Under the pieces are notes generated by a model. The model did not search any database. It was not told the DNA's origin and saw only the letters and a program-made list of their open reading frames with translations. Of a DNA stretch of 64,000 nt, positions 744 to 20,049 are shown one piece after another. Origin of the DNA: a phage; sequence record QB031382.1; one strand, written 5' to 3'. Every line of letters begins with the position of its first letter. Within the stretch, counting starts at the first letter, position 1. Made by a program: the position numbers and the translations under genes.

Positions 744-746
744 TAC

Positions 747-3709: not shown

Positions 3710-3724
3710 CATCTAGTTAACATA

Positions 3725-3754: not shown

Positions 3755-3771
3755 ATAAGGAGATCTGAAAA

Positions 3772-4188: not shown

Positions 4189-4284
4189 CACAGATTGAAA
4201 GGTGTGCAATTATAACTTCATAGAACGGGAGGACGTGATGAACGAAGAAAACTGGGATGTATAACTAACAGGAGGCCACTGCCC

Positions 4285-4482: not shown

Positions 4483-4550
4483 GAGGATGTGATAGCCATG
4501 TTTTATGATCTTCCTATAGCGCCACCACCTGTTGAACCCGGAGAACTAAG

Positions 4551-5424: not shown

Positions 5425-5449
5425 CAGCCGGATTTTAAGGTGGTATAGT
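5421..5449 (+). promoter_or_regulatory. sigma70-like promoter
   Basis: TTGACA 5421-5426, 17-bp spacer, TATAGT 5444-5449. Confidence 0.65.
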
Positions 5450-5477
5450 CACCACAACGATTAAGACAGGGGGCACT

Positions 5478-5678
5478 ATGGAGACTAAAATCTTAATTCT
5501 AGCTGTGATAGATACAACAGAAGGGGCTATATTTGAATCTGCAGGAGGGTATTTCTACCTGCCCTATGGAAAAAGAACTTCCGAGCCGAGTAAAGATTCA
5601 ATCCTCAAAGTGTTCCCGTGTTCTTTCTGGCTGGAGATTCTGGTAGAGGATTGCAAAGGATTGGAGAGACAATTATGA
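5478..5678 (+). CDS. hypothetical protein
   Basis: Track ORF downstream of promoter. Confidence 0.5.
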   Translation: METKILILAVIDTTEGAIFESAGGYFYLPYGKRTSEPSKDSILKVFPCSFWLEILVEDCKGLERQL

Positions 5679-5869
5679 GAAACAAGAAAGAGCTTTACTC
5701 TGGTGAGTGGATCAACGATCAACAGATCGGAGAGGTAACCTGCTTCCGATGTTTTACCAGGTACAATATTAAAACTGCACCAAAAAGTGTTCCAAAGACT
5801 GACGGTTATTACATAAAAGAACCTCATTGCCCAAAATGTAAATGCCGATTGTACTGGAGCAATCTGTAA
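5675..5869 (+). CDS. small zinc-ribbon protein
   Basis: Track ORF 5618..5869 trimmed to ATG 5675 after GGAGAG; CFRC and CPKCKC cysteine pairs. Confidence 0.5.
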   Translation: MRNKKELYSGEWINDQQIGEVTCFRCFTRYNIKTAPKSVPKTDGYYIKEPHCPKCKCRLYWSNL

Positions 5870-5873
5870 GAGG

Positions 5874-5901
5874 TTGACATCTGAAAACTGCAGTGTATAA
5901 T
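5874..5901 (+). promoter_or_regulatory. sigma70-like promoter
   Basis: TTGACA 5874-5879, 16-bp spacer, TATAAT 5896-5901. Confidence 0.65.
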
Positions 5902-5932
5902 ATACTCATAAACTAACAGAGAGCGATGTATT

Positions 5933-6124
5933 ATGGTAATTTTTAACCGGGATGGTATCATAGTTAGACAGCACCCGTTCCTTGAATACTATCAAATTGA
6001 GCAATGGTGCTACGGGGATTGCAGTCACTCCTATGGGCAAAGTTGGGGATATCGCACAGTTTTTGAATCAACAGACCTTGACAAAGTAAGACAGAAAGTT
6101 TTAGAACTTATTAACAACAAGTGA
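5933..6124 (+). CDS. hypothetical protein
   Basis: Track ORF downstream of promoter. Confidence 0.5.
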   Translation: MVIFNRDGIIVRQHPFLEYYQIEQWCYGDCSHSYGQSWGYRTVFESTDLDKVRQKVLELINNK

Positions 6125-6131
6125 GTATGAT

Positions 6132-6464
6132 ATGGTAACATTAGAAAGACGTAAAGCTATTGCCGCTACACTGGCAGACATCTTTTGGGATTGTAATTTA
6201 AAAGATACCCGATATTGCGGCGCATCTGTAGATGTATTATTCCCACGGCCCACCATTGTTGCAATGGGCAGTCTACTGGGCGTAGTTGCAGGTGCATGGG
6301 ATAAGGAAGGCGGTTTTTATATCTGGCAACCTGACTACGGTACCTGGAAAGAAGTAAGGGGTGCTGATGACTTTGGGCCTGCAGTTGCTAAGATGGATGG
6401 CTGGGAAATTTATGTTGGAAACGACATGAAGCTGAAAGGCGAGATTGTTTACTGGTTACCTTAA
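6132..6464 (+). CDS. hypothetical protein
   Basis: Track ORF. Confidence 0.45.
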   Translation: MVTLERRKAIAATLADIFWDCNLKDTRYCGASVDVLFPRPTIVAMGSLLGVVAGAWDKEGGFYIWQPDYGTWKEVRGADDFGPAVAKMDGWEIYVGNDMKLKGEIVYWLP

Positions 6465-6484
6465 GAAAGTGCAGGAGATAAAGT

Positions 6485-6730
6485 ATGAACAAAGGGTGGA
6501 CATTCGTAGACGGCGTTGAAAACATGCCTCTCGGAAAGTATATCGTAGCCATGGCTGACAAGAATGGCAATGTAGATTTCGGAGCTTGCGAGGTTGTTCT
6601 TGCAGGATCTGGTGGCTATGTGCACAAAACTGGGGTAATTAATGGTCAGTTCTACTTTGATCACAACCCTGTTGTAGCGTATATGGCTATGCCAGAGTTC
6701 AAGCTACCAAAGGAAGGTGCTGATGTTTAA
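6485..6730 (+). CDS. hypothetical protein
   Basis: Track ORF; RBS AGGAGA upstream. Confidence 0.55.
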   Translation: MNKGWTFVDGVENMPLGKYIVAMADKNGNVDFGACEVVLAGSGGYVHKTGVINGQFYFDHNPVVAYMAMPEFKLPKEGADV

Positions 6731-6956
6731 GCTTAAATCTGCATGGAACATTGCTGTAGGCGATGAGATCCGCATTCCGGGTGGGAAGACCGTTATGAAG
6801 ATATCCCGTATTGAATACGAAGGTGACCGTGTATTCCATATTTTTGCAGAAGATGGTCGAGAAATTTATATACAGGCGGGCTCACACATCTATATTCGTA
6901 AAGGGGATGACAAACGACAGAGATCATCATTTCAACTGCAGGGTATGTATTCCTGA
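6717..6956 (+). CDS. hypothetical protein
   Basis: Track ORF; start overlaps previous gene. Confidence 0.5.
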   Translation: MLMFKLKSAWNIAVGDEIRIPGGKTVMKISRIEYEGDRVFHIFAEDGREIYIQAGSHIYIRKGDDKRQRSSFQLQGMYS

Positions 6957-7288
6957 CAATCATTGCGCTGATCATCTTGGTGGTGGTGTATGGATTTGTT
7001 ATCCTGCCTATTCTTGAGACATTTAGTTTGTGTCGGTGTTGGAGAAAGGCTTACGGACCACAGCCGTGGAAAGACTGGCCTCATCTGTTACGCATAGCGT
7101 TCTCCTATGCCTATGATCACTCCAGCAGTGCATGCATAACTGGGTATCACGCCCACAACTGGAACTGGGAAGGGTTGGGGAGATGGAATGTTATAAAAAC
7201 TATACCTCTACGCATGTACAAGCCTAAAAACAAAGATAGTTGATACTTGAAAATCCCTGGCACATCAAACATAAGGAGGATTTCTAAA

Positions 7289-7543
7289 ATGGATTTCCTC
7301 CTTTTGATATTTTACCTGGCCGGATATTTTAAAATTCTTAGAAAATCAGAAAATGGATCGAAAACTAAAATGGATTTTTTCAAGACAGGCACGATAAGCT
7401 GTGCTAATCATCCTATCGTTCGCACCGTACTTCAAATCACCGTTCCAGATTTTCCGCACACACTCTCACCCTTCTACCAGAACTTTCCCAACTTACCTTC
7501 GGCCTTTTATGACAATAAGTTAATTATTATCAGTAAGTTTTGA
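7289..7543 (+). CDS. hypothetical small protein with hydrophobic N-terminus
   Basis: Track ORF 7247..7543 trimmed to ATG 7289 after AAGGAGGA; sits in repeat-rich AT-rich DNA so coding status is uncertain. Confidence 0.35.
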   Translation: MDFLLLIFYLAGYFKILRKSENGSKTKMDFFKTGTISCANHPIVRTVLQITVPDFPHTLSPFYQNFPNLPSAFYDNKLIIISKF

Positions 7544-7554
7544 TACATCTCTCT

Positions 7555-7745
7555 CAGTACTCGATCTGTTTTTCATTTCAAAGATTGGATTTTCTGAAAA
7601 TTTTTCTCGATAAATTTTTCGGTACTCGATCTGTTTTTCGTTTTCTGAATCGGATTTTCTTGAAATTGGTCCAGCACCAGATCTAAAATTTTTGGGAACG
7701 AAAGCGATTTTTCGTTTTCAGAAATGGATTTTTAAAATTTCTATA
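7555..7745. repeat. tandem direct repeats, about 65-bp unit, 2-3 copies
   Basis: GTACTCGATCTGTTTTTC exact at 7557-7574 and 7622-7639, each followed by GGATTTTCT-GAAA-type sequence; degenerate third copy near 7700. Confidence 0.7.
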
Positions 7746-7874
7746 TGGGAATATTTTATGAGGTATTATTTTATATAGAATTGTCACGGTAGGTAATTAG
7801 CATGCTAACTAAATTTATGAAATGCGAAAAGTTCTCATTTAGAATTTTGAATGATAATCATTCTCGTTTGCAGA

Positions 7875-7903
7875 ATAACGGGCACCCCCGGTGATTGTCT
7901 CCC
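7875..7903. repeat. 29-bp inverted-repeat arm A, partner at 15983..16011
   Basis: ATAACGGGCACCCCCGGTGATTGTCTCCC is the exact reverse complement of 15983-16011; degenerate tandem copy near 8012-8050. Confidence 0.85.
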
Positions 7904-8412
7904 GGCCCCTACTGCCCCGGCTTGCTATTATAGTATCACACAGGACAAAGAAAGCAAGGAGTTTTTGCATAAATTTTTAGACGATAATGATAATCGTTCT
8001 CATTTCATGCAGCGCCCATCCCCGGTGGTTGTCTCCCCCGTCACCGGTGCCTGCCGTCCTTTCGATATGTATATTGTGCCACCTGGCGGGGCCGCTGTCA
8101 ACACTTTTCAAAAATTTTTTTCTAACCTGATGCACTAACCGCTGCAACCTGGCGGGGCCAGCCTGGCAGGACCTAACTGACCAGGTGGGCCTATGCTATA
8201 GGATAGGTAACAATTGAAGAGGAGGTACAAAAAATGGAAGGTAATATGATCCCCTGGAAAATGTAGCTATTAATGACGCTGAGGCTATCGCCCTGGTTGA
8301 AAAGGCTATGGCGGGAGCGTTGGAACATAAAGAAGAGTACGAAAAAATTATGGTTAACCTGGCAGGGTCGGCGGCTGAGGAATTTTGCCCAAAAAATAAT
8401 TTTAACTAGTGG

Positions 8413-8441
8413 TTGACAGCTCGGACAGTTTTTGCTATTCT
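8413..8441 (+). promoter_or_regulatory. sigma70-like promoter
   Basis: TTGACA 8413-8418, 17-bp spacer, TATTCT 8436-8441. Confidence 0.5.
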
Positions 8442-8493
8442 TATCCTCGCAAGGTGAACAACACCACACTAATTAACAGAGAGGATAAAAATC

Positions 8494-8691
8494 ATGAACG
8501 CCTACGGAATCAAAGTACGTCGCAACACTCGCCAGGTGGTCACCAATCAAGTGATTTGCCGGGCGGATGTAACCATCAACAACGGGCAAGGCCTTTATAA
8601 ATTTCGTCGCGGTCATAGTTATACCCTGCAACAGCTTAATCGTTGCGCCCTGACAAAAGGCCAGATCAACCACTGGTTTAATAAAAAATAA
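8494..8691 (+). CDS. hypothetical protein
   Basis: Track ORF; RBS GAGGA upstream. Confidence 0.55.
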   Translation: MNAYGIKVRRNTRQVVTNQVICRADVTINNGQGLYKFRRGHSYTLQQLNRCALTKGQINHWFNKK

Positions 8692-8694
8692 GTA

Positions 8695-8723
8695 TTGACA
8701 TATAGCCTGACACAAAATACACT
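8695..8723 (+). promoter_or_regulatory. sigma70-like promoter
   Basis: TTGACA 8695-8700, 17-bp spacer, TACACT 8718-8723. Confidence 0.5.
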
Positions 8724-8755
8724 AAAAGCACAAAAGACACTAAGAGGATAAAATC

Positions 8756-9154
8756 ATGAAAACCACTACCTTTAATTTTGACAATGCGGACTTTTCTTTT
8801 TCTGATGTCAAGAACTGCCGCCGTGATCGTGGATTTTATAAGGCTTATAATCTGGTGGGCCTGGACGATGACAATAATTTGCACGAAGTAGCTGAGATCC
8901 GGTATTATGCCGCCGCCAGTGGGAACACTCACTACTGCGTTTTTTGGATACACGACAACAAGAACAATAAGTACGGCTATACTGGCGGCAAGGCGAGCGG
9001 TCACGGTTATGATAAAGCTAACGCAGCACTTGAGAGCGCATTAAATGCTATGGGGATCACTGCCGACGGCTGGATCTACGAAGAAGAGTTTTTGTCGGCA
9101 CTTGCTGACCGCCTGGGATATAAAAAGCACATTGTAACATGTGCCCACGAATAA
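8756..9154 (+). CDS. hypothetical protein
   Basis: Track ORF; RBS AAGAGGA upstream. Confidence 0.55.
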   Translation: MKTTTFNFDNADFSFSDVKNCRRDRGFYKAYNLVGLDDDNNLHEVAEIRYYAAASGNTHYCVFWIHDNKNNKYGYTGGKASGHGYDKANAALESALNAMGITADGWIYEEEFLSALADRLGYKKHIVTCAHE

Positions 9155-9165
9155 AAAAAAAATTA

Positions 9166-9193
9166 TTGACACGCTGCAAAATTCAAGTAAACT
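9166..9193 (+). promoter_or_regulatory. sigma70-like promoter
   Basis: TTGACA 9166-9171, 16-bp spacer, TAAACT 9188-9193, preceded by A-tract. Confidence 0.5.
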
Positions 9194-9241
9194 AGACACA
9201 AAAGGCGGGAATGTTTCCCGCCAACACAAAGGAAAAAGATC

Positions 9242-9646
9242 ATGAATAAGAACGTACGCCGCATCATGAACGAGTTGGCAAACGATGAAAAAATTATTGA
9301 CATGCATTTGATCAACATTTGCCGCCGTTGTGTAACATATAACAACCGCGCCGCAAAAGCGCGTGAGATGAACGCAAAAGGCACCTTAAAGCCATTCCAG
9401 GTGGTGGTAAAGGCCATTAAAAATGTAACTAATACGGCAAACCAGGTACAGGGGAACACCAACGAGAGTACCAATATTGATCCGGCTTACATCATGAAAC
9501 GGATCCGGACCTGTAAGAACAAAGAGCAAGTGTATAATGTTATAGACTGGTTGGATTCTATGGGCGACGTGGTGTACAATAGATTCTCGGCAGCTATTGA
9601 GATCCAGCTTGACAGGTTGGACGGTAAAGTACTGAAAACTTATTAA
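9242..9646 (+). CDS. hypothetical protein
   Basis: Track ORF; RBS AAGGAAA upstream. Confidence 0.5.
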   Translation: MNKNVRRIMNELANDEKIIDMHLINICRRCVTYNNRAAKAREMNAKGTLKPFQVVVKAIKNVTNTANQVQGNTNESTNIDPAYIMKRIRTCKNKEQVYNVIDWLDSMGDVVYNRFSAAIEIQLDRLDGKVLKTY

Positions 9647-9694
9647 GTTTATTTTTAGATGGCCTTGACTCCAGGGCCATCAATAAAGTAAACT
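9645..9694 (+). promoter_or_regulatory. repeated promoter-hairpin module, copy 1
   Basis: AT-rich tract, then GATGGCC..GGCCATC inverted repeat containing TTGACT, then TAAACT; near-identical copies at 10266 and 13992. Confidence 0.55.
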
Positions 9695-9846
9695 AGTCTC
9701 AACTAAGCGAAAAAGGGGGCTTTAAGATGAGCACTACACGCCAATACACAAAGGTAACTATTATCGTTTGCGTTGTCGGTTACATCCTGGCGCAAATGTT
9801 AATGAGTAGCGCCAACAGTTTTGCAAAATTTTTCTTAAATTTTTAA

Positions 9847-9874
9847 TTGACAAGCTAACCCAAATCAGTATACT
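9847..9874 (+). promoter_or_regulatory. sigma70-like promoter
   Basis: TTGACA 9847-9852, 16-bp spacer, TATACT 9869-9874. Confidence 0.55.
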
Positions 9875-9925
9875 TAAACACGTAAACGGGAAAACTTCCC
9901 AGAACACACAAAAGGAGAAAACACC

Positions 9926-10267
9926 ATGACTACTATGACCGCCGCAGAAAAAGCTATGCAGATCGCCGCGCTGAAAAAACAGATCGCAGACCTTGAGAAC
10001 AAGATCGATAACTTTGAAATCGACGAGGACAAGTACGACGAAAACTATAATGAATGGCTAGACGAGATCCACGGCGAAATTATGATCGGTAACATTTCTT
10101 TTCTTCCGTCGCGTATCCTCAAGGAGTTAGATCCTATCGCTTACCGCTGCGGATTTAGCGACTACATCGACAGCCTGGGCATTGAGGACGACGAAGACTA
10201 TCAAGAATTGCAGACAGAGTTGGAAGAAATGAAAGAGGAGCTTTCAAAGCTGGAAGAAAACGAGTAA
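9926..10267 (+). CDS. hypothetical coiled-coil acidic protein
   Basis: Track ORF; RBS AAGGAGA upstream. Confidence 0.55.
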   Translation: MTTMTAAEKAMQIAALKKQIADLENKIDNFEIDEDKYDENYNEWLDEIHGEIMIGNISFLPSRILKELDPIAYRCGFSDYIDSLGIEDDEDYQELQTELEEMKEELSKLEENE

Positions 10268-10317
10268 AATTTATTTTTAGATGGCCTTGACCCCAGGGCC
10301 ATCAATAAAGTAAACTT
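10266..10317 (+). promoter_or_regulatory. repeated promoter-hairpin module, copy 2
   Basis: TTTATTTTTAGATGGCCTTGACCCCAGGGCCATCAATAAAGTAAACT, near-identical to copies 1 and 3. Confidence 0.55.
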
Positions 10318-10353
10318 TACACTGTTACACTGAACTAATGAGGAGTTAAAACT

Positions 10354-10599
10354 ATGGCAGCACTAATCACAAAATATTATGCGCCCACCAACACCAAAAG
10401 CGCCCGTATCATGGTAAAAGGTTTCGGACGTAAAAAGGTCTACACCTGGGACTATTCCCTAGATATGGAAGACAATTATACCAACGTAATGACTGATTTT
10501 ATTAATGATCTGAATAAACAGATCCTAACCGACTACAAAGTGACCGATATTGTTTACATAGGTGAAGGCGGGATCTGTTTTGTAGGCATTGTGAAATAG
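10354..10599 (+). CDS. hypothetical protein
   Basis: Track ORF; RBS GAGGAG upstream. Confidence 0.55.
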   Translation: MAALITKYYAPTNTKSARIMVKGFGRKKVYTWDYSLDMEDNYTNVMTDFINDLNKQILTDYKVTDIVYIGEGGICFVGIVK

Positions 10600-10675
10600 T
10601 TATTTTTTCGGTGGTCCTGGTTGCAGGGGCCATCTATAAAGATAATTTATTAACACCATGAAAGGAGAAAGTAAC

Positions 10676-11029
10676 ATGATCAGCGGGGCCAGTTTTATTA
10701 TCGGCGCTATTGCTACGGCTTTAATTGTAAACAAGATCCAGGATAAAAAGGAAAGAGGAAGTACCGCCCTTGCAGAATATCCATTTTGGACATTCAACGA
10801 TAACGAAGATTATATTATAAAGTATAAAAATAAAGAAGGCGACCAAGTAACACCGCGACCGATCCCGGCTTACAAAATGCAGGAAACACTATACCGCCTT
10901 GAGGCGGGCGGCGCAAAAATTGTTGACTTTTGGGGATACGACCACACAGATCAGGAAGTTATAAAGCGCCGTATCCGGGCTATTCAGGCCAATATTGAGG
11001 TTAGCAAGAGGGGAATATATGAAAATTAA
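10676..11029 (+). CDS. hypothetical membrane protein
   Basis: Track ORF 10658..11029 trimmed to ATG 10676 after AAGGAGA; N-terminal hydrophobic helix. Confidence 0.5.
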   Translation: MISGASFIIGAIATALIVNKIQDKKERGSTALAEYPFWTFNDNEDYIIKYKNKEGDQVTPRPIPAYKMQETLYRLEAGGAKIVDFWGYDHTDQEVIKRRIRAIQANIEVSKRGIYEN

Positions 11030-11216
11030 TTTCGAGAAAATTGTAAAGCGCCCTCATGATTCCGAAGAGTTGCCAGAACGCCGCCAGCGCAACAATAAGC
11101 TGAATAAGCCAAAAAGGTTTGGGAAGATCTGGCGTAATCATTATGATCGTAAATTGCCCGGCCTACTTTTGGAACGTGAACGACAGGCAGAACGCTACCG
11201 CCATAAAGACAAATAA
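11019..11216 (+). CDS. hypothetical basic protein
   Basis: Track ORF 10995..11216 trimmed to ATG 11019; overlaps previous gene end. Confidence 0.45.
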   Translation: MKINFEKIVKRPHDSEELPERRQRNNKLNKPKRFGKIWRNHYDRKLPGLLLERERQAERYRHKDK

Positions 11217-11224
11217 CAACCAAC

Positions 11225-11253
11225 GCCCCGCCATTGTGCGGGGCTTTTTATTT
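11225..11253 (+). terminator. rho-independent terminator
   Basis: GCCCCGC-CATTGT-GCGGGGC hairpin followed by TTTTTATTT. Confidence 0.8.
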
Positions 11254-11373
11254 CTATCCTACGAATAGCGCCCCTGGTTGGCCCTGTAAGCGCCAAAAAG
11301 GCCCCCACCTATGCAATCGCCCCTTTAACCTGAAAACATCGCCCAGGGCCGTCCTATGGCGTTAAAAATATCA

Positions 11374-11401
11374 TTGACATCGTCAACAGGTTAGCTATAC
11401 T
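11374..11401 (+). promoter_or_regulatory. sigma70-like promoter
   Basis: TTGACA 11374-11379, 16-bp spacer, TATACT 11396-11401. Confidence 0.6.
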
Positions 11402-11433
11402 AACCACATCAAAGAGAGAAAGGAGTAAACGCC

Positions 11434-11694
11434 ATGCGTAAATTAAAAAATTTTGATAAAGTTGATGTTATCCTGAATAATTTTTACTACTGCAACAATA
11501 AAGCTATCTGGTGGCGGGATAGTTCCACCGATAAAGTCAAAGCGCGCTTTCTTCAAGGGCACTGGCAAGGCCGCCCAGTGATTAAAATCATGGGGCAATT
11601 GGTAGCGTTTAAAAATTGCCGCCGCGTTGATGACGTTGAGGAGATTTTAAACATTTTGCGCCACAATAATTTAAAAAATAGTGTTGACAAGTAG
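11434..11694 (+). CDS. hypothetical protein
   Basis: Track ORF; RBS AAGGAG upstream. Confidence 0.55.
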   Translation: MRKLKNFDKVDVILNNFYYCNNKAIWWRDSSTDKVKARFLQGHWQGRPVIKIMGQLVAFKNCRRVDDVEEILNILRHNNLKNSVDK

Positions 11695-11711
11695 ATCTCA
11701 ATAAGTATAAT
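11684..11711 (+). promoter_or_regulatory. sigma70-like promoter
   Basis: TTGACA 11684-11689, 16-bp spacer, TATAAT 11706-11711. Confidence 0.65.
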
Positions 11712-11768
11712 TAAACACACAGGCGGGAAAACTTCCCGCCACTAACAAAGAAAACAGGAGAAAATATC

Positions 11769-12392
11769 ATGACCACCGTTAACATTACCACAGGTTACAA
11801 TTTATCTTTCGACGTGCTGACCGACGAACAAAAAGAAAAAGCCATTGAAATGGTCCGCGAAAGAGAAGAACGTAGCGGGGACGATTTTTTCGCAGAAAAT
11901 GTAATTGAATACTATAAAGAACAAGTTTTTCCAGAGTACGGCCTTGAGGATACCGAAGTACATTGGTCCGGCTTTTGGTGTCAAGGCGATGGCGCATCGA
12001 TCAGTGCTGAAAATGTAGACTTAGAAAAATTCTTGCGTAAAGTCAAGGCCCTGACCAAGTTCAGATCAATTCGTCACTTGTTCGGCACAATGCACGATGG
12101 CGAACTATCCGCCAGTGTTGAACGCGACAAGTACAGCCATTACAGCCATGAAAACACTATAAGCGGGTACATTGATACCACTTGGATAGATCTGACCGCC
12201 AAACAAGAAAACAAAGTGGAAGACCTGGAAGAATTGATCACCGAGACGGTACGGGAGCTATCCCGCAAGGTTTACGTAGACCTTGAGGAGGCCTATCTAG
12301 AACAGTTCACCGCAGAAAACCTGATCGGCCTTATTCAGGCCAATGATTGGCGGTTTGATGTCGATGAATATGGTGAGATGACTTTTTCATAA
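11769..12392 (+). CDS. hypothetical protein
   Basis: Track ORF; RBS AGGAGA upstream. Confidence 0.55.
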   Translation: MTTVNITTGYNLSFDVLTDEQKEKAIEMVREREERSGDDFFAENVIEYYKEQVFPEYGLEDTEVHWSGFWCQGDGASISAENVDLEKFLRKVKALTKFRSIRHLFGTMHDGELSASVERDKYSHYSHENTISGYIDTTWIDLTAKQENKVEDLEELITETVRELSRKVYVDLEEAYLEQFTAENLIGLIQANDWRFDVDEYGEMTFS

Positions 12393-12485
12393 ATAAAGTG
12401 TTGCAATAACCTAAAAACCTGCTATATTAAAACTCAAGGGGGGCAAGACATTTGCCCGCCAACACAAAACAAAGAGGATAACATC

Positions 12486-12866
12486 ATGAAAAATACTACT
12501 AAGGCTATTGACACCGTTATGTTTAACCTGGTTACACTCCGTGAAGATATGAAAGATCTTCCGCGTGAAACAGTGTGCGACCATATCGAAAACTATCGCA
12601 AACTAATCAAAGAGTTGCCATTAAAACGAGATCAGTACGCGGCTAACGCTATGCTAAACGCCATGATCAAAAAGATGATCCAGTGTGATCTAACCCTGGC
12701 CTATGATTATGCAGGCGGTCGTTTTGCAGTATACAATCAGCCCGTGCCTGGTATGAGCACCACCGAAGAATTGCACGCGCTCAATCTAAAACAGGACGTG
12801 TGGGATAGTATGCCTCGCGTGGTGGTATGGGTAGAAAGCGGGAAGATTTACGGCGATAATTTTTAA
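12486..12866 (+). CDS. hypothetical protein
   Basis: Track ORF; RBS AGAGGA upstream. Confidence 0.55.
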   Translation: MKNTTKAIDTVMFNLVTLREDMKDLPRETVCDHIENYRKLIKELPLKRDQYAANAMLNAMIKKMIQCDLTLAYDYAGGRFAVYNQPVPGMSTTEELHALNLKQDVWDSMPRVVVWVESGKIYGDNF

Positions 12867-12876
12867 TCAGGTAGCA

Positions 12877-12902
12877 GGCGGCATAATTGCCGCCTTATTG
12901 TT
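12877..12902 (+). terminator. rho-independent terminator
   Basis: GGCGGC-ATAATT-GCCGCC hairpin followed by TTATTGTT. Confidence 0.65.
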
Positions 12903-12930
12903 GATCAGAACTGCAAAAGGGGTACATAGA

Positions 12931-13302
12931 ATGGAATTTATTATTTTGGCCGTATTGGTTGCCTTATTTAACGCCTGGATCGCTGGCAAGATGGGAAGAT
13001 CCGCCTTTTTATGGTTTATTATATCTATTTTCCTGGGGGTGGTTGCAACTATTGTACTGGTTATCCTTGCAATTGTTGACAAGGGGAATAATAGAAAGGG
13101 TAAAGTATTTTCAGACCTGTACGACGCTCAAACGTTTGTCAACGCCTATTACAGCGATCTTCCAGTCTCCCTACGTTGCAGCCTTGCACAACAGGTTTTT
13201 GATGAGGCTAAAACCAGAGATCACGCCCATGAGATTTGTTTAACTGAGGCGGATCGCTTATTTGAGAGGAATAGAAAATATGTGGGCCAGCCGTTTAAAT
13301 AA
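12931..13302 (+). CDS. hypothetical membrane protein
   Basis: Track ORF 12898..13302 trimmed to ATG 12931 after AAAGGGG; two hydrophobic helices. Confidence 0.5.
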   Translation: MEFIILAVLVALFNAWIAGKMGRSAFLWFIISIFLGVVATIVLVILAIVDKGNNRKGKVFSDLYDAQTFVNAYYSDLPVSLRCSLAQQVFDEAKTRDHAHEICLTEADRLFERNRKYVGQPFK

Positions 13303-13521
13303 TACCACGTTAATTAATCCATTTAGTGAAGATTTGAGGCCAGCCGCCTGGCGGAATGGATTCAATAACGAAAAATTTACTTTTAGGCCTGATCTTGAGG
13401 AATTTTATAACAATGGATCGAACAACGACAGAAATAATTTTTCTCGTAATGTGCGTGGCGATAATACTCCTGGGGGCCATTGTAAACCACGTCACTGCTA
13501 ACAGGAGGAAAGGGGGAGACG

Positions 13522-13641
13522 ATGACAACCAAGGATAAGCCCAGCACCGACAAGGCGCGCCGCGTTATGGTATGGCTTGAGATTATCGCCCTTGAAATAT
13601 TGTTAGGCGTAGGGATGTATTTTATCGCCGTACGTACCTGA
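13522..13641 (+). CDS. small hydrophobic protein, 39 aa, absent from track
   Basis: ATG 13522 preceded by AGGAGGAAAGGGGGAG; hand translation MTTKDKPSTDKARRVMVWLEIIALEILLGVGMYFIAVRT. Confidence 0.45.
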   Translation: MTTKDKPSTDKARRVMVWLEIIALEILLGVGMYFIAVRT

Positions 13642-13645
13642 TAAC

Positions 13646-13677
13646 GGCCCCCGATCCCTGGGGGCCTGACTTTTTTC
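13646..13677 (+). terminator. rho-independent terminator
   Basis: GGCCCCC-loop-GGGGGCC hairpin followed by TTTTTTC. Confidence 0.65.
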
Positions 13678-13705
13678 AAAAAAAAAAATTTTTTCTTCCG
13701 GGGTG

Positions 13706-13734
13706 TTGCAATCCGGTCCGGAATATGGATAATA
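13706..13734 (+). promoter_or_regulatory. promoter, family 2
   Basis: TTGCAA then conserved AATATGGATAATA; same architecture at 14524-14552. Confidence 0.45.
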
Positions 13735-13792
13735 ACAATCAACGGGGAGACACTCCCCACCACACAGACAAAGTTCCAAAAGGAGAAACAAA

Positions 13793-13993
13793 ATGAGCAA
13801 CAATATCCGCGTTATTAACTTCAAAAAAGAAGAAAAAATAGCTGTGCTGGTTGATGGTCAAGAAATATTCAAGGGGTATTACGAAGATCATCAGGCGGCG
13901 ATCAGTATTACCCGCGTAATTGGTTACCATAATTTTTACCCTCAAGGCGCTGAGGCAGCAGTAAAACGAATTAAGGAGATTGTAGGCCTGTAA
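13793..13993 (+). CDS. hypothetical protein
   Basis: Track ORF; RBS AAGGAGA upstream. Confidence 0.55.
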   Translation: MSNNIRVINFKKEEKIAVLVDGQEIFKGYYEDHQAAISITRVIGYHNFYPQGAEAAVKRIKEIVGL

Positions 13994-14043
13994 AATTTAT
14001 TTTTAGATGGCCTTGACCCCAGGGCCATCAAATAAAGTAAATT
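13992..14043 (+). promoter_or_regulatory. repeated promoter-hairpin module, copy 3
   Basis: TTTATTTTTAGATGGCCTTGACCCCAGGGCCATCAAATAAAGTAAAT. Confidence 0.55.
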
Positions 14044-14085
14044 TAAAACCTGTTAAAATAATCAGTGCAAAAAGGAGAAATGATC

Positions 14086-14385
14086 ATGTTTATACCCGCC
14101 AATGATCTTTATTTCTTTGATGGTCAGATCGTAGACGGCGTGGAAGTTGAGATCGCTGGATGTAAAGGCGGCCAGGTAATGATCTTCCGCAATAGTGCCT
14201 TTAACGATCATTTTATTACAATGACTGTGGAAGTTAAAAAGCTGGATGATAAGAAAACACTCATTGACTATTCCGTGAAAGATCATCCAGACTACCACAT
14301 GATCTATGGTGATTTGTGCATTGTTGACCGTGACAAGGTGGGCGGCATTGTGATCGCTATTGTGAACGATGTTTTCTCTGAATAA
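14086..14385 (+). CDS. hypothetical protein
   Basis: Track ORF 14065..14385 trimmed to ATG 14086, best spaced from AAGGAG. Confidence 0.5.
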   Translation: MFIPANDLYFFDGQIVDGVEVEIAGCKGGQVMIFRNSAFNDHFITMTVEVKKLDDKKTLIDYSVKDHPDYHMIYGDLCIVDRDKVGGIVIAIVNDVFSE

Positions 14386-14523
14386 TTCCGGCAAATGATG
14401 CAAAATAAGGCCCATGGCAGGGCCTGCAGCGATATAATCACACAAAGGCTATGCAGTTGCATGGCCTTTTTATTTTAGCGCTACAGCGGCCCCCAAGGCG
14501 TTTAAAAAATTTTTAAAAAGTAC

Positions 14524-14552
14524 TTGCATCAAGTCCGACAATATGGATAATA
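14524..14552 (+). promoter_or_regulatory. promoter, family 2
   Basis: TTGCAT then AATATGGATAATA. Confidence 0.45.
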
Positions 14553-14610
14553 GGACTTATCAGGGGGGGGCGGCCCCCAATCATTAACCGGATAGATGGG
14601 AGTTAAAATC

Positions 14611-14895
14611 ATGGCTATTGTTACCGTGGGCGATGTAGTAGAAATGGAAGCAAAATACTTAAAAGCGGGTATGCATATCCTACGCAACGATCTTGAACTA
14701 GTCCTGACAATGGTCGACTATAATCCCGGTCAGGATTATCCAAGCATCGACTACTTTTTCCAGTATGTTGACGAAGAATTAAAAGAAGATGACGCTTATC
14801 GTGGTGAATTTTGCAATTTCTTTTGCCCTGATGAGGTTGTAAAAGTTATCTATCAACCTGGCGTACCTTTCCCGTTGCACGCCATCAATAAATAA
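14611..14895 (+). CDS. hypothetical protein
   Basis: Track ORF 14596..14895 trimmed to ATG 14611 after GGGAG. Confidence 0.5.
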   Translation: MAIVTVGDVVEMEAKYLKAGMHILRNDLELVLTMVDYNPGQDYPSIDYFFQYVDEELKEDDAYRGEFCNFFCPDEVVKVIYQPGVPFPLHAINK

Positions 14896-15020
14896 GCCTG
14901 GCGGGGCCGAAAAAGGCCCCTCCTGAAACTATGAAAAAATAAAGATAGGTGAATCATCATGATGGAACAAATTAAACGCGCTGAGGCTATTAATGGCAAT
15001 GATGCCGCCAACATGACAGA

Positions 15021-15284
15021 ATGAAAAACATCATTTACAGATTGACAAAACGCAACATCATGATCGCCACCGTGATCGCTTGCCTTTTCGCTTTCGTGAG
15101 TAACGCAACGTTTAACGCCGTGGGCCGGGTGGTGTTTAATGCTGGCAGTGTTTCAACAGCTAACACAATAATCGATTGTTTGCAACTTTTCTTTTATGTT
15201 GCCTTTCGTTTAAAAATAGCTTGCAAGGTAGACCGTTTTGATTTACCTTTTATTTGTGGCGGCGTGATCGCTATCGTATGCTAA
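15021..15284 (+). CDS. hypothetical membrane protein
   Basis: Track ORF; hydrophobic segments. Confidence 0.45.
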   Translation: MKNIIYRLTKRNIMIATVIACLFAFVSNATFNAVGRVVFNAGSVSTANTIIDCLQLFFYVAFRLKIACKVDRFDLPFICGGVIAIVC

Positions 15285-15356
15285 CAGAGGATCAGAAGAA
15301 AAGTGTACGACATAGGGCGGGGCAATAAGGCAACGCCCATTAATGAGGGTGGAATC

Positions 15357-15461
15357 ATGTTAGAAAAAATTTTCACGGTTGTAGTAGTTGGCATGGCATT
15401 ATCGGTTGGAGTGGTTGCAACTATGGCTAACATGATCCTATCTTCCCACGGTATCGGGTAA
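15357..15461 (+). CDS. small hydrophobic protein, 34 aa, absent from track
   Basis: ATG 15357 after GAGGGTGG; hand translation MLEKIFTVVVVGMALSVGVVATMANMILSSHGIG. Confidence 0.4.
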   Translation: MLEKIFTVVVVGMALSVGVVATMANMILSSHGIG

Positions 15462-15471
15462 GGTGAAACAA

Positions 15472-15630
15472 ATGATCACGAACAAAACAGGAAAAACGGA
15501 ATTTTTACGCGGCTTGCAAATAGGTAAGCCTGAGATCTGGTATTGCACTAAAACACCACGTGACGAAATGAAAGATTTTACCGCCACGCTGAAGCGGGTA
15601 AAGATATCTATCACGCAGAAAAAGCCTTGA
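15472..15630 (+). CDS. small protein, 52 aa, absent from track
   Basis: ATG 15472 after AAGGTGA; hand-translated open frame to TGA 15628-15630. Confidence 0.4.
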   Translation: MITNKTGKTEFLRGLQIGKPEIWYCTKTPRDEMKDFTATLKRVKISITQKKP

Positions 15631-15776
15631 TAGTGGTGGAAGGTGAGATCCCTCAAGCCGTTGTTATAGTTGAGCGTACAGCATAGTTTAATCTATACCG
15701 TACGCCCCATTAACTAACAAAGCATAAGCAGGCGGCGGTGACCGCCTTGAACGCAACAGAAAGAGAATAGAAAAGC

Positions 15777-15911
15777 ATGAGAAAGGTAATTATCACCATA
15801 GGGATCGTGGCGGCAATGTTGGCGATCTTTCCCTTTATGGTTAGGTATGTGCTGATCAGTATTGTCCTGATAGTCAGTGGTCTATTGGAAACGGTTGGCA
15901 ACTGGTTTTAA
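15777..15911 (+). CDS. small hydrophobic protein, 44 aa, absent from track
   Basis: ATG 15777 after AAAGAGAA; followed by terminator hairpin. Confidence 0.4.
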   Translation: MRKVIITIGIVAAMLAIFPFMVRYVLISIVLIVSGLLETVGNWF

Positions 15912-15919
15912 GATAATAA

Positions 15920-15948
15920 ACAGGGCTTGCAATGGTCCTGTTTTTTGT
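15920..15948 (+). terminator. rho-independent terminator
   Basis: ACAGG-loop-CCTGT hairpin followed by TTTTTTGTT. Confidence 0.5.
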
Positions 15949-15982
15949 TATACTTATCTCACGGGTGGCACCTGGCGACGGG

Positions 15983-16011
15983 GGGAGACAATCACCGGGG
16001 GTGCCCGTTAT
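15983..16011. repeat. 29-bp inverted-repeat arm B, partner at 7875..7903
   Basis: GGGAGACAATCACCGGGGGTGCCCGTTAT, exact reverse complement of arm A. Confidence 0.85.
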
Positions 16012-16030
16012 ATAAAAACTATAAAAACAG

Positions 16031-16059
16031 TTGACATCTGCCAGGTGGTTAGGTAACAT
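16031..16059 (+). promoter_or_regulatory. sigma70-like promoter
   Basis: TTGACA 16031-16036, 17-bp spacer, TAACAT 16054-16059. Confidence 0.5.
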
Positions 16060-16113
16060 TTATCTTGAAGGGGCAAAAGTGCCCACACAACAACCAGAAG
16101 AGAGGAAAACATT

Positions 16114-16386
16114 ATGTCAAGCTGGATTAATCAAAAAGTTGAATCACGTTTTAATGCTATCTGGGATCTCATCGAAAAAGAGGACGGAACATCAAGCCCT
16201 TACCTCAATAATCTTGAATTCCATTTTGTGGAAGCGATGAACGCAGAACATGATCACAAAGGTGGCGCGGATGAGTTCGCTCAAGGGTATGGCTTCAACA
16301 ATGCCAACGAAATGATTGAAGCGGTTGTACTTCAGGCTGAGGAAGATTATCAATTAAAAACACTTGAATTTTGCCGCCGTAAGTAA
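16114..16386 (+). CDS. hypothetical protein
   Basis: Track ORF; RBS AGAGGAAAA upstream. Confidence 0.55.
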   Translation: MSSWINQKVESRFNAIWDLIEKEDGTSSPYLNNLEFHFVEAMNAEHDHKGGADEFAQGYGFNNANEMIEAVVLQAEEDYQLKTLEFCRRK

Positions 16387-16447
16387 TAAGATAATGACAC
16401 GGGCCAAAAGGCCCACCAAACCAGAACCCCATAAAGAGGAAAACATC

Positions 16448-16711
16448 ATGAAACGCCTTGATCAGCTCAAACTAGTTCAGTACATGGCCTACAAAGTTAT
16501 TGAAGTCCAAAAAGGTAGTAAAAAGGAGGTTTGCGAGAAAGCGTATAAGATCTTTACTCGTAAAAAAGATGATTGGATGTTACGCCAGACCAAAAAGGCT
16601 GATATCCTGGGGTACCTGGAAGAAGAGATCCGGCTTGAAGAGCAAGAAGAGATCCGCCGCAGTGAGGCAGATTATCAGGCAGCTTGGGAAAGCTGGATGA
16701 GAAACAAATAA
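16448..16711 (+). CDS. hypothetical protein
   Basis: Track ORF 16364..16711 trimmed to ATG 16448 after AAGAGGAAAA. Confidence 0.5.
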   Translation: MKRLDQLKLVQYMAYKVIEVQKGSKKEVCEKAYKIFTRKKDDWMLRQTKKADILGYLEEEIRLEEQEEIRRSEADYQAAWESWMRNK

Positions 16712-16723
16712 TAAACATTATCA

Positions 16724-16752
16724 AGGGGCTTAGGCCCCTTTCTTTTTGTTTG
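16724..16752 (+). terminator. rho-independent terminator, end of + block
   Basis: AGGGGC-TTAG-GCCCCT hairpin followed by TTCTTTTTGTTTG. Confidence 0.8.
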
Positions 16753-17364
16753 CTCTTTTCCTACCATAAACGGCCCTACCTGGCAAGTGGAATAATTGAC
16801 GAGCCATTAATCCCGCACACTGTACAAATATACATATAAAATAACTATTGCATAATCTTTCATCTTGTGGTAGCAGGGTCATTTTTACACGTTTTTCCTT
16901 CCAAAAATGCACGTAATGCAGCTATTGCACAAAATTTAACCTGATGCACATTTTCAGCATACTGTCAACAATTAAAAACCCTTATAAATCATACACTTAC
17001 ACAAACCAAAAAGCGTGTCCTACGTGAAAAATCGGGTGTAACTATAGCCGACAGATCTCAGAATCCACGTACGATCACCATTCTATAGCCTGCTAAGTAT
17101 TTATTCCAACCACAGAATAACGGAATAGTCAATACCTGTACAAAATAATTATTCGTATAAACTGCATAACATAAATTTTCTCATGTGTAAACATTTTTCG
17201 TAAACAGTCCGAAATTGTCACGATAGGTTACTATAATCAGAGAAATCTTTAGTCGTCTAATGTTTACTGCACATAACTATACTGACTGGAATCATTAGAT
17301 GACTAAGAGAAAGATAAGAAATAGTTAACAATGTAATTGTTTTACCTGTAACAATAAGGCAACT

Positions 17365-17642
17365 ATGCAAACGAATGTCATGGCGCGACGGAGTCGCGAC
17401 ATAATATAAAAGCAGTAACCATCACCCCCGTGATAGTTTATCTGCAAACTATTGATCAGATCATAGTTGCCTTAGATTTAGTTAATCATGACATAATAAG
17501 CAAGGCAACTATAGATCTGATAATAGTTGCCCTGCTTTTATATTATGTCATATATTATTAACCTGTTAATTGTCAGCTTATTGGCTGTTAGCTTGTCAAT
17601 TGTTAACTTGTTAATTGTTATCATGCAAACGAATGTCATGGC
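17365..17642. repeat. composite repeat element: 20-bp direct repeats flanking an 18-bp inverted-repeat pair
   Basis: ATGCAAACGAATGTCATGGC at 17365-17384 and 17623-17642; GACATAATATAAAAGCAG 17398-17415 is the reverse complement of 17532-17549; interior has repeated GGCAACTAT/ATAGTTGCC and a TGATCAGATCA palindrome. Confidence 0.8.
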
Positions 17643-17653
17643 TTATCATCTTT

Positions 17654-17765
17654 GTGTAAACTGTCAGGGTGTAGACTATTCAAGGTGTAAATTATTCAGA
17701 TGCAAACTATCCAGGCGTAAACAGTCTATGCGGGAACAATCTGCACGTGAACAATGAAACATGAA
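17654..17765. repeat. degenerate tandem array, about 16-bp period, about 7 units
   Basis: GTGTAAACTGTCAGG / GTGTAGACTATTCAAG / GTGTAAATTATTCAGA / TGCAAACTATCCAGGC and further units. Confidence 0.55.
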
Positions 17766-19254
17766 ATAATAACAGTCGTTATTGTATCGAAAGTGTATAA
17801 GGTGTCAGATTATGGCATATTGTGTGACATTGTGTCAGACAAGTTTTTCTCCTCTTTGTCAAGTGCTGCATGTAAAATTTACAAACTGGTATGGTAGCAT
17901 TTTTGCGGCCCTGTTTACATTCAGGAGTGTATGTATAACCCTTGTTGTGTGGGCGTTTAGACGTCTGGACGGTCAGAAGTCTGCAGGTTAATATCTAATC
18001 TATTGGTCGCTAACTATATCCCCACAAATAATAAGAAATGCAATTGTTATATGCGTAAACAGTAACTCATGTTATCAATCCCTGTATGTATCGCCAGTGG
18101 TGCGCATAATGGGTATTATGTTAAATTGCCCGTAATGATAACGATTCTCACAATGATAGGTATTCTCATTCACCCGCCCAGGATAGGTTGCAAATGTTGT
18201 GCCACTGTGTGAACGGCCTCGCCTATTAATTTGCCTCACTGCCCCGATATTTGAGAATTATTATAAGAATGAGAAGTATTCCCATTTCGTCCGCCTGGCA
18301 GCACTCCTGTAGGACAAGCACAAAATCGTGGCATAACTGTACCTGTTCAGATATTTCTGGCTGACTCTTCAGGTCTGTGTGGGAAAAGCCAACCTCTCCG
18401 GCGGCGGGGAGTGGGTCAATTAAAAAATTTACGTGGTGTATGAAGCGCTCTTCAGGTAAGGCAGGTATTATGGGATGAATCACTCTTCAGGTGATGATAT
18501 TTGTAGGTGTGATATTTGCTGGAAAGCCAGATATGACGGGACTCCCGGCGGGGCAGGGGTAGTACAGACAGGGAAAATGTGGAGAATGTGGTGGGTAAAT
18601 TGATCAAGCAGGTAGAGTATGGAATATGTTACAGGTATGTTAAATATGGAGGTAAGATATTTGTAAGATTTGTGTGTAAAATCAAAGACTTAAGTAGTGT
18701 TGTGGTATTTTCTATAAATAATTCAAGTTTAATAGGGAATATTTGCCTCTATCCACTTTGTATGGTAACTATATTCTAATTGAATTGGTTTACAAGTGTA
18801 TATAAAGTATACAAATTAAAGATACAAGAAACCCCCCTCCCCCTTCGGCTACCATTCACCTTTTCCTCTGACTGGTACTTAAACACTTATTCAGACTCTT
18901 CAGGTTATCACTCATATATCATATGGCAGTGACTGGTGTCCTCCGGCCCCTCTTTCGTCACCCGTCCGCTTCGCCATGCTAATGCCATAGCTAACTGTTC
19001 GGTTGTTCACCCTGTTCACTCAGGTGTATCTCCATACCCCTTCAAACCGAAGAGAACAGAAAACCCGAATTACTCGGTAAAAGAAAAGAGAAGAACTTAA
19101 TTTTATCAGGATAGGCAAGAATGTCAAGGCATGACTGCTCACTAAACAAGCAAACAGTCATGTGTGGGAGGTAAGTGATTGTGGTGGTAGGAAATTTAGT
19201 TGAAAGATGTGTTATAGGTGCTTCCAGCACTTTAGCCTGGCAGCTAATTGTGTG

Positions 19255-19470
19255 TCAGTCCAGCGGTTCATCCTCTACTTCACTGAAATCAATGTTCAGG
19301 GTCTCTTCCCAACCATCGATCTCAGCACAAGAGTGGAGTTCTTTAGGGTTTACTCCCAAAGCCTCAGCAACAGAGTCTATATTTAACACCTCTGGCAGGT
19401 ATGATTCATCGAATTCAAGGTAAATCAGGCCACGAGTGTTGTCAGCTCCACCAAATATTTCTATCTTCAT
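19255..19470 (-). CDS. hypothetical acidic protein
   Basis: Track ORF, last gene of minus-strand array. Confidence 0.5.
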   Translation of the reverse strand: MKIEIFGGADNTRGLIYLEFDESYLPEVLNIDSVAEALGVNPKELHSCAEIDGWEETLNIDFSEVEDEPLD

Positions 19471-19590
19471 AAAATCTCCTCTGGAAATGAGAGTGTGAAC
19501 AGGGTTATACGTTCCAATGCGCAGGAATTTATATACGTTTGCCTCTTCAGGCCATGCTTTAGCATGATAAACTTATGTGGGCTCGGTGCT

Positions 19591-19893
19591 TCATAGTCTG
19601 CCACCTCTGAACTCTTCGTGCTCGGGCAGGATAGAGAACCAGATGTCTAAGATGTCTTCCCACGTCAGGTCATCAGCCTCAGGGTCTAAGTTTTCCTCTA
19701 CGGTCACTTCTTCAGATGTCTCTTCAGATGCATGTGTGTTGGTCATGTTCCACCCGTTAGTATTCCGGCAACAGCCGCTATGGACGTAATGATCATCAGG
19801 ATCACCACTAAAACTTCGGACAATGTTTTCATTGCGTATTCCATATTCTTCAAACGATGTGAGGATACTATCACAGGAGCGGTAATGTGTCAA
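19591..19893 (-). CDS. hypothetical acidic protein
   Basis: Track ORF in minus-strand array. Confidence 0.5.
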   Translation of the reverse strand: MTHYRSCDSILTSFEEYGIRNENIVRSFSGDPDDHYVHSGCCRNTNGWNMTNTHASEETSEEVTVEENLDPEADDLTWEDILDIWFSILPEHEEFRGGRL

Positions 19894-20049
19894 CAGAAAC
19901 GCCGCGAGGGTTGGTTAAAATCCGAGCGTATGGTGATTTGGGTCAAAACGGACGTGCGTTCTCGCTACGCTCGAAATAGAGAGTTGTTTACAGGCCGCCC
20001 TTAAACGCTCTGTAATAAGATTATCCATCTAAGGTATGCAATCGTGCAC

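Follow-up and report, generated by a model that had tools for sequence, protein, structure and literature searches.

The 64,000-nucleotide stretch of phage DNA analysed here (sequence record QB031382.1; hereafter the window, whose numbering is used throughout) contains at positions 16753-19254 a gap of 2.5 kb on which two gene blocks converge. This gap is most probably (about 0.88 in our estimate) the cis-acting terminus, or concatemer-junction, and packaging region of a linear chromosome that carries short direct terminal repeats of the T7 type. It was matched in 122 phage records, all of them Vequintavirus, about 100 of which cover the full gap at 86-94% identity, and by this similarity the window itself is assigned to an rV5-like Escherichia coli myovirus of the same genus with a genome of about 137 kb. 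A first-pass annotation, made from the letters of the sequence alone, had offered a replication origin, packaging or injection-control sequences, or a long structured RNA as candidate functions; packaging has been borne out by the virion DNA ends, which map to the middle of the gap, whereas injection control and a structured RNA have not, and plain chromosome ends had not been among its candidates.

The direct terminal repeat and its boundaries

Terminal repeats have been mapped in several close relatives, namely a 459-bp repeat in Gotham, where all virions begin with the identical sequence (PMC7471380), and repeats of 458 bp in EdH4 and HdK5 (PMC6563267). The Gotham record (MT682716) runs from one physical end to the other and lists repeat regions at 1-459 and 136567-137025; these two copies align identically with the window, and both map in reverse orientation to 17838-18295. 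Query position 1086, which corresponds to window position 17838, is where the ECP2303, Gotham and HdK5 records stop, while those of bov10K2 and bov22_2 start at query position 1543, corresponding to 18295, and both boundaries are thereby confirmed by records from four independent sequencing projects. Because end-mapped relatives start or stop exactly at these positions, the following features are placed in the window:

17838-18295, minus strand: direct terminal repeat (DTR), 458 bp, from the Gotham alignment and the record ends of relatives
18295 reading downwards, minus strand: virion left end, GGCGGACG...
17838, minus strand: virion right end, ...CTTGTC

A second match to the DTR was not found elsewhere in the 64 kb; as in a replicative concatemer, a single copy is present, the two virion copies having been merged during assembly. 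Circularising the Gotham record reproduces the order seen in the window, in which the unique flank of the right end (19254 down to 18296) is followed by a single copy of the DTR and then by the flank of the left end (17837 to 16753). The properties expected of a DTR are thus found together: the same sequence of a few hundred base pairs stands at both ends of the virion DNA, as carried over from the relatives by about 94% homology; the termini are fixed and non-permuted, as indicated by the shared record ends and by the PhageTerm class of the Klebsiella phage KPP-1, described below; and a single copy lies between the unique DNA of the right and left ends. The DTR is 92-98% conserved among relatives, and conservation shifts sharply at both of its boundaries, immediately outside of which the DNA is hypervariable or rich in insertions and deletions, a pattern that fits functional cut sites and recombinogenic ends. 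No evidence was obtained for the injection control suggested at first pass, and T5-style injection-stop signals were dropped as a candidate, given that the repeat is 458 bp long rather than about 10 kb and carries no genes.

A longer version of the gap was encountered in phage I29 (ON286975, 1501-4559), where it measures 3.06 kb and the equivalent of window positions 18079-18621 (543 bp) is duplicated. This duplication straddles one repeat boundary and has a short inverted piece at its joint; either the phage DNA is truly rearranged here or the duplication arose in assembly at the genome end.

Genomic setting of the gap

On the plus strand, the last open reading frame (ORF) reaches 16711 and an intrinsic terminator comes after it; a terminator is annotated at the equivalent place in Murica and Gotham. 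The stop codon of the last minus-strand ORF (71 aa) lies at 19255.

16723-16740, plus strand: intrinsic terminator closing the plus-strand gene block, AAGGGGCTTAGGCCCCTT followed by TCTTTTTGTT, with a 7-bp GC-rich stem and a T-run

Nearly all ORFs of at least 100 aa lie on the plus strand from 1 to 16711 and on the minus strand from 20797 to beyond 41 kb, and none was found between 16711 and 20797. The two blocks accordingly converge on the gap, both being transcribed towards the chromosome ends, and the gap was correctly located and described in this respect by the first-pass annotation, as was its AT-richness, the GC content being 0.42-0.46 in the flanks but 0.34-0.37 from 16.7 to 18.0 kb. 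The same arrangement is recognisable in rV5, whose genome paper draws a grey "non-coding" box without ORFs at this stretch and proposes transcriptional units that converge between genes 163 and 164 (PMC3606486); in the rV5 RefSeq record, the gap lies between ORF 163 and ORF 164. Outside Vequintavirus, no match to the whole gap was returned by a more sensitive blastn search. The flanking 71-aa protein was likewise restricted to the genus by tblastn, and scanning IMG/VR with it gave three loci, all from vequintaviruses.

In many relatives a 420-bp ORF (rV5 ORF 164) sits between a 264-bp ORF and the gap, and its equivalent in Murica carries the record note "contains Rel homology domain". The equivalent is missing from the window (16712-16752), HMD-6, APCEc02 and slur12, and the gene content beside the chromosome end is therefore variable. 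Separately, 19 records named "Campylobacter phage" (host C. jejuni) match the region of the E. coli vequintaviruses at about 86-93% identity, which suggests that this data set includes coliphages that were contaminants or had been wrongly assigned.

The left flank: an inverted-repeat block and arrays that end at the cut site

The several independent repeat systems announced by the first-pass annotation are real and far above chance, and a 20-bp direct repeat, an 18-bp perfect inverted repeat and tandem arrays of 7 and 15 bp are present in the gap. Those of the left flank are arranged as follows:

16753-17330, plus strand: AT-rich outer left flank, 80-93% conserved, with more C (0.21) than G (0.14)
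17355-17549, no strand assigned: block A, a composite inverted repeat, 91-100% identical in 15-17 genomes
17365-17384, plus strand: 20-bp box ATGCAAACGAATGTCATGGC, copy 1, conserved in all genomes
17550-17622, no strand assigned: variable cassette with alternative alleles between phages, here with TTGTTAA/TTGTCAA 7-bp repeats
17623-17642, plus strand: 20-bp box ATGCAAACGAATGKCATGGC, copy 2, exact, directly before the repeat-unit array
17654-17765, plus strand: tandem array of 15-16-bp repeat units, consensus RYGTRAAYARTnAnn
17781-17837, plus strand: TGWCA repeats with a 10-11-bp (helical) period, the final TGTCA abutting the DTR boundary

Over 16740-17220 the C/G ratio of the outer flank ranges from 1.2 to 3.0 in 80-nt windows, and this tract might serve as a back-up termination zone of the Rho type. 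Block A contains four GGCAACTAT half-sites in alternating orientation, which are the only copies in the 64 kb (0.59 expected). They form two 28-bp palindromes, 60 bp apart and each with a spacer containing GATC, which are enclosed by an 18-bp perfect inverted repeat (17398-17415 and 17532-17549); the block also includes two small hairpins. As a single strand, block A is predicted to fold into one long three-way hairpin, with z-scores of -9.2 as single-stranded DNA and -9.75 as RNA. Consensus folding of 17 genomes gave 63 predicted pairs, almost all of them invariant, with one compensatory change; one double change in the palindrome spacers was not compensatory (C:G to A.C). The comparison of relatives proposed at first pass yielded conservation but no usable covariation, neither in the pairs of block A nor in the invariant block B of the right flank, and the fold of block A is beyond confirmation by covariation because its pairs do not vary. 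Such variation as occurs in block A falls in the predicted loops; in rV5 and phita32 an extra 33 bp is inserted precisely at the apical loop.

The remainder of the left flank (17550-17837) is hypervariable yet modular, with the same order of modules in every genome. Tandem Repeats Finder reported a period of 15 and 4.5 copies for the repeat-unit array; across 15 genomes, 56 of the 68 spacings between units are 15-16 bp and the remainder are multiples, and the copy number varies between phages from three to nine or more strict copies. Among the TGWCA repeats, 21 of 41 spacings are 10-11 bp, and the distance from the last TGTCA to the DTR boundary is zero in 15 of 15 genomes (TGTCA|GACAAG). Read on the minus strand, the TGWCA repeats appear as overlapping -35/-10-like hexamers.

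The right flank: an orphan promoter and a nearly invariant block

Beyond the second cut site, the following features were distinguished:

18296-18340, no strand assigned: conserved TGGCAGCACTCC just outside the second cut site, followed by an indel hotspot with cassettes of 0-70 bp
18365-18492, plus strand: three CTCTTCAGGT motifs (18365, 18448 and 18483), conserved in nearly all genomes
18580-18740, plus strand: strongly C-depleted tract with 3-4 C per 80 nt, a minus-strand transcript of which would be C-rich and G-poor
18815-19093, minus strand: nearly invariant segment downstream of the orphan promoter, a putative RNA of about 275 nt
19100-19127, minus strand: near-consensus sigma-70 promoter TTGACA-16-TGaTAAAAT, aimed at the DTR
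19128-19165, no strand assigned: palindrome CATGACTG-N17-CAGTCATG, directly upstream of the -35 element and invariant
19166-19254, minus strand: tail after the last minus-strand gene, C-poor on the plus strand and without an intrinsic terminator

The plus strand of 18340-18800 is G-rich and very poor in C, as is the tail, where 19140-19219 holds 6 C against 25 G. All four exact copies of CTCTTCAGGT are on the plus strand of this region, the fourth being at 18896. From 18815 to 19165 the sequence (block B) is almost invariant: 150-nt windows contain 8-11 variable columns here and 33-50 elsewhere. Block B is about five times less variable than the neighbouring DNA and less variable even than the adjacent gene. 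Its promoter was the top match of the scan, agreeing at 11 of 12 positions with an extended -10, has no ORF downstream, and is invariant in 14 of 15 genomes. Across the window, 19 near-consensus sigma-70 promoters (at least 11/12) were found where chance predicts 1.5, and each of the 19 shares the orientation of the local genes (plus over 1-16.7 kb, minus over 19-53 kb and plus over 58-61 kb), which indicates a heavy reliance on host RNA polymerase across these gene blocks. Because of this excess and this orientation, the orphan promoter is probably real. The invariant segment downstream of it ends on the minus strand in G5AG6 followed by a T-rich run (18845-18815), and a discrete RNA of about 275 nt is possible.

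An account that makes no appeal to packaging is that block B constitutes an early gene, transcribed by host RNA polymerase, for a trans-acting regulatory RNA of about this length. The limits of conservation suit such a gene, since they coincide with the promoter and its upstream palindrome at one end and with the G-run and T-run at the other; the low variability of the block, its freedom from any coding signal and a near-consensus promoter of a class that is clearly real in this genome point in the same direction. We nevertheless hold this account to be doubtful. Rfam gave no match at E <= 5 over 16000-20000, its best hit over 18780-19260 had an E-value of 5.4 and 13.8 bits against a gathering score of 45, and at gathering thresholds only tRNAs were reported in the whole window. 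The predicted fold of block B is no better than that of shuffled sequences on either strand (z = -1.05 and +0.09), which, together with the Rfam results, tells against the long structured RNA proposed at first pass; a canonical intrinsic terminator is lacking, and the invariant sequence offers no covariation. No homologue was detected outside the genus or in E. coli, as an exact 20-mer of block B was met in one IMG/VR contig, the search giving no relative outside the genus, and block B had no match in E. coli genomes. The literature searched contained no transcriptome, origin mapping or Fur link for the Vequintavirinae.

A terminal repeat in a second genus

KPP-1 (MT438396), a Klebsiella phage of the genus Mydovirus in the same subfamily, has a 514-bp repeat and was assigned to the T7-type class by PhageTerm (PMC9862379). 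Converging gene blocks border the 1.8-kb gap that contains this repeat, and the repeat is collinear with that of Gotham, the global alignment score being 5.4 standard deviations above shuffled sequences while the reverse-complement control falls at the shuffle mean. Locally, the best island of the alignment is ATTAC..GCcATTTAACATAAaACaCgTTATaCGCAC, and the two repeats are alike at their left ends (GTGCT..A|G.CGGAC) as well as at their right ends (TGTAAATTT...CTTGACAA.GGAGA.A.A.TTGT|). The KPP-1 repeat is thus weakly homologous to that of Gotham, including both end motifs. The right flank of KPP-1 is far shorter than in Vequintavirus (334 bp) and is devoid of block B.

Within that short flank, at 2840-2900 of KPP-1, CCGTAAACAGG and a CCCCCCTTCCCCC run were noticed, which resemble the GTAAACAG core of the vequintavirus repeat unit and its C6TC5 run (window 18828-18853, 17716 and 18054), although on the opposite strand relative to the repeat; the KPP-1 repeat also contains CCTCTTCAGG. 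These likenesses may reflect shared binding motifs or coincidence. A degenerate end motif, CTTGACAAN{0,2}GGAGANANANTTGT, was also searched for in IMG/VR and set aside, 15 of its 16 matches being the promoter, ribosome-binding site and GTG start of an unrelated phage group, with a gap setting that missed the vequintaviruses themselves.

Proposed function of the terminus and points against it

In the scheme that we favour, terminase would cut sequence-specifically at TGTCA^GACAAG and at CGTCCGCC^TGGCAG, guided by the conserved end motifs together with the TGWCA repeats and the 15-16-bp units, the two arrays that adjoin one of the cut sites; these arrays might play a part like that of the terminase-binding arrays in lambda cosB, P1 pac or T7 pacB. 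Nicking and strand-displacement synthesis would duplicate the DTR, following the model put forward for T7. The flanks may shield the junction from transcription, with the terminator at 16723-16740 and C-rich, G-poor RNA tracts presumably facing each incoming transcript, and block A and the orphan early promoter (19127-19100, towards the DTR) could take part in junction processing, in replication priming or in both, by analogy with T7 phiOR and phiOL. The flanks carry no Chi site, and the idea of a RecBCD decoy is therefore without support.

Several observations weigh against this scheme. The ends of the present phage are placed by homology to relatives of about 94% identity; another Vequintavirus, BpE1AUH, was inferred by PhageTerm to be packaged by the headful mode with partial permutation (PMC13211470), and the termini were not found in the rV5 paper (PMC3606486). 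Origins just as typically have repeat-unit arrays and a large inverted repeat, the part given to terminase being drawn from analogy, and the conserved DNA, about 1 kb per side, goes far beyond the needs of known pac or cos sites. The repeat coordinates of KPP-1 are coverage-based, so that the comparison of end motifs could be off by a few bases.

Should the terminus be as proposed, its consequences would be practical as well as biological. Many GenBank records of these widely used therapeutic and typing phages contain spurious tiny ORFs or an arbitrary linearisation, both of which can be corrected once the chromosome ends are known, and for engineering there would be about 2.5 kb to keep intact, together with true ends for genome rebooting or in vitro packaging. 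For the biology of a large myovirus with terminal repeats, testable candidates for end recognition and processing, and perhaps for the start of replication, are supplied by the arrays ending at one cut site, the 150-nt inverted repeat, the promoter-led block and the Fur-box-like motifs treated below.

A replication origin in the flanks

A replication origin, which was among the candidates of the first-pass annotation and would be compatible with packaging, might reside either in the left flank (17355-17837) or in the orphan promoter with its G-rich transcript (19127-18815). Like the iteron origins of lambda and of the plasmids P1, F and R6K, the region combines tandem direct repeats, here of variable copy number, with nearby inverted repeats and AT-rich DNA, and it further offers a conserved element of about 150 nt able to form a hairpin or cruciform (z about -9), GATC sites conserved in the palindromes of block A, and a strong promoter without a gene, whose G-rich RNA would end in G5AG6 and a U-tract and so resemble the primer-forming transcripts of ColE1 and of mitochondrial CSBII; phiOL and phiOR of T7, too, are associated with secondary origins. 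The skew analysis of the rV5 authors could not locate an origin (PMC3606486).

An origin at this site is nonetheless unlikely in our judgement. The host-factor sites and clustered Dam sites of an iteron origin were not found: the single DnaA box and single IHF consensus (18673-18692) are at chance level, and GATC is under-represented, with 6 sites where about 14 would be expected. At 15-16 bp the period falls short of the customary 17-22 bp, the array is hypervariable in copy number and sequence even between near-identical phages, no initiator gene adjoins the region, and block B is absent from KPP-1. The genes, moreover, point towards the region, and co-directional replication and transcription would rather suit a terminus.

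A narrower conjecture concerns block B alone. By analogy with ColE1 RNA II and the mitochondrial LSP-CSBII pair, block B, having a strong promoter and a non-coding G-rich transcript that would end in G5AG6 and a U-tract, might be an R-loop- or primer-forming or junction-processing unit, the RNA of about 275 nt stopping at the CSBII-like tract about 520 bp from the DTR. The RNA sequence GAAGGGGGAGGGGGGUUU of block B closely resembles CSBII RNA, which is to be read as a resemblance only, and the transcribing enzyme would be host RNA polymerase instead of a T7-like polymerase. We consider this a long shot. If it were true, the block B RNA would prime DNA synthesis towards the DTR or license processing by terminase, the block would correspond, under a sigma-70 promoter, to T7 phiOR or to mitochondrial LSP-CSBII, and, together with the Fur-box-like sites of the DTR, it would couple end replication or packaging to host physiology.

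Coding potential of the gap

The coding potential was assessed from the variable columns of 15 aligned genomes in 150-nt windows over 16760-19254, and no window displayed a 3-nt periodicity (all p > 0.05). Three flanking genes used as a positive control showed a strong third-position bias, with counts of 7, 4 and 28 in the first, of 7, 3 and 31 in the second, and of 7, 50 and 14 in the third, whose frame was read one base off. Mechanical ORFs of 30-85 aa do exist in the gap, a qualifier to the ORF-free state described at first pass, but none behaves as coding, and most of the candidates are broken or frameshifted in relatives. GenBank records annotate between 0 and 16 tiny ORFs here, with positions and strands that are inconsistent from one record to another. 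The gap is non-coding. That it encodes several very small proteins, as is annotated in the records of NHEP1, MiataMamis and Mangalyan (12-16 ORFs of 30-60 aa) and might be read from the ORF at 18936-19100, intact in 13 of 14 relatives, is highly improbable, because the periodicity that is strong in the flanking genes is missing across the gap, most of the ORFs are interrupted, the annotations conflict and careful ones list none, and the intact ORFs fall in stretches that are invariant anyway.

Relation to known terminal and packaging regions

The terminal-repeat regions of other Vequintavirinae (Gotham, EdH4 and HdK5) are the closest counterpart, with the same sequence at about 90-94% identity and a repeat of 458-459 bp between converging gene blocks. 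The DTR and the "non-coding" box are thus already known for close relatives from the literature or GenBank, and the papers on these relatives give the repeat length or the box only; the arrays, the inverted repeat, the orphan promoter and the invariant block are undescribed there. The new points, offered as leads from sequence comparison, are the arrays running up to the cut site, block A, the invariant block B with its promoter, the Fur-box-like motifs and the conservation of repeat ends across genera.

T7 and T3 reportedly possess terminal repeats of 160 and 230 bp, a pacB site, the SRL and SRR arrays and the orphan promoters phiOL and phiOR. The present region resembles them in its short exact direct repeat with fixed ends, in the adjoining arrays of short repeats and in a promoter past the last gene that would fire through the junction. 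In contrast with T7, it belongs to a myovirus of about 137 kb that has host sigma-70 promoters and no promoters for a phage RNA polymerase; its genes converge on the ends, whereas those of T7 run from left to right, and its non-coding flanks, about 1 kb each, are much longer.

The cosB site of lambda comprises R1-R3 and an IHF site, and the pac site of P1 consists of TGATCA/G hexamer repeats regulated by Dam. Multiple short, phased direct repeats next to the putative cleavage site are a feature that the present region appears to share with both, and the block A palindromes with their conserved GATC, as TGATCA in this window, recall P1 pac in particular. The ends here are, however, a 458-bp duplication rather than 12-nt cohesive ends or headful cuts, and GATC is not enriched overall.

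Fur-box-like motifs in the repeat and elsewhere

A 17-nt motif occurs six times in the window (0.07 expected), and three of the copies are inside the DTR:

18134-18168, plus strand: two tandem Fur-box-like 17-mers, AATGATAACGATTCTCA and AATGATAGGTATTCTCA
18268-18284, plus strand: the remaining 17-mer (copy 3), at a distance of 11 bp from the virion left end

The first of these reads TGATAATGATTCTCA in most relatives, which agrees at 13 of 14 specified positions with what we take to be the 7-1-7 Fur consensus. A Fur box was defined as a match to GATAATGATAATCATTATC or to the 7-1-7 consensus TGATAATnATTATCA that overlaps a promoter. With up to two mismatches, seven Fur-box-like sites were found in the window against 0.58 expected, four of them in the gap, and five in the terminal gap of KPP-1 against 0.04 expected, the AT-rich context inflating the chance rate. 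The sites inside the DTR are conserved among relatives.

A second ORF-poor stretch, at 7250-8235, contains two similar units, each with a strong Fur-box-like site, GATAATGATAATCGTTCTC at 7983 (17/19 to the consensus) and TTGAATGATAATCATTCTC at 7847 (15/19), and each of these sites overlaps a -10-like GATAAT. The gene with a strong ribosome-binding site at 8235 is preceded by a leader of about 240 nt that is C-rich and probably structured. To judge from these sites, phage transcription at this stretch may respond to iron through Fur.

An unusual tRNA

In the tRNA cluster of the window, ARAGORN predicted, without assigning it an identity, a 99-nt tRNA at 62111-62209 with a 4-base anticodon (atcc), to which Rfam gave a weak match of 35.5 bits; this tRNA could contain an intron, be of the frameshift-suppressor type or be degenerate.

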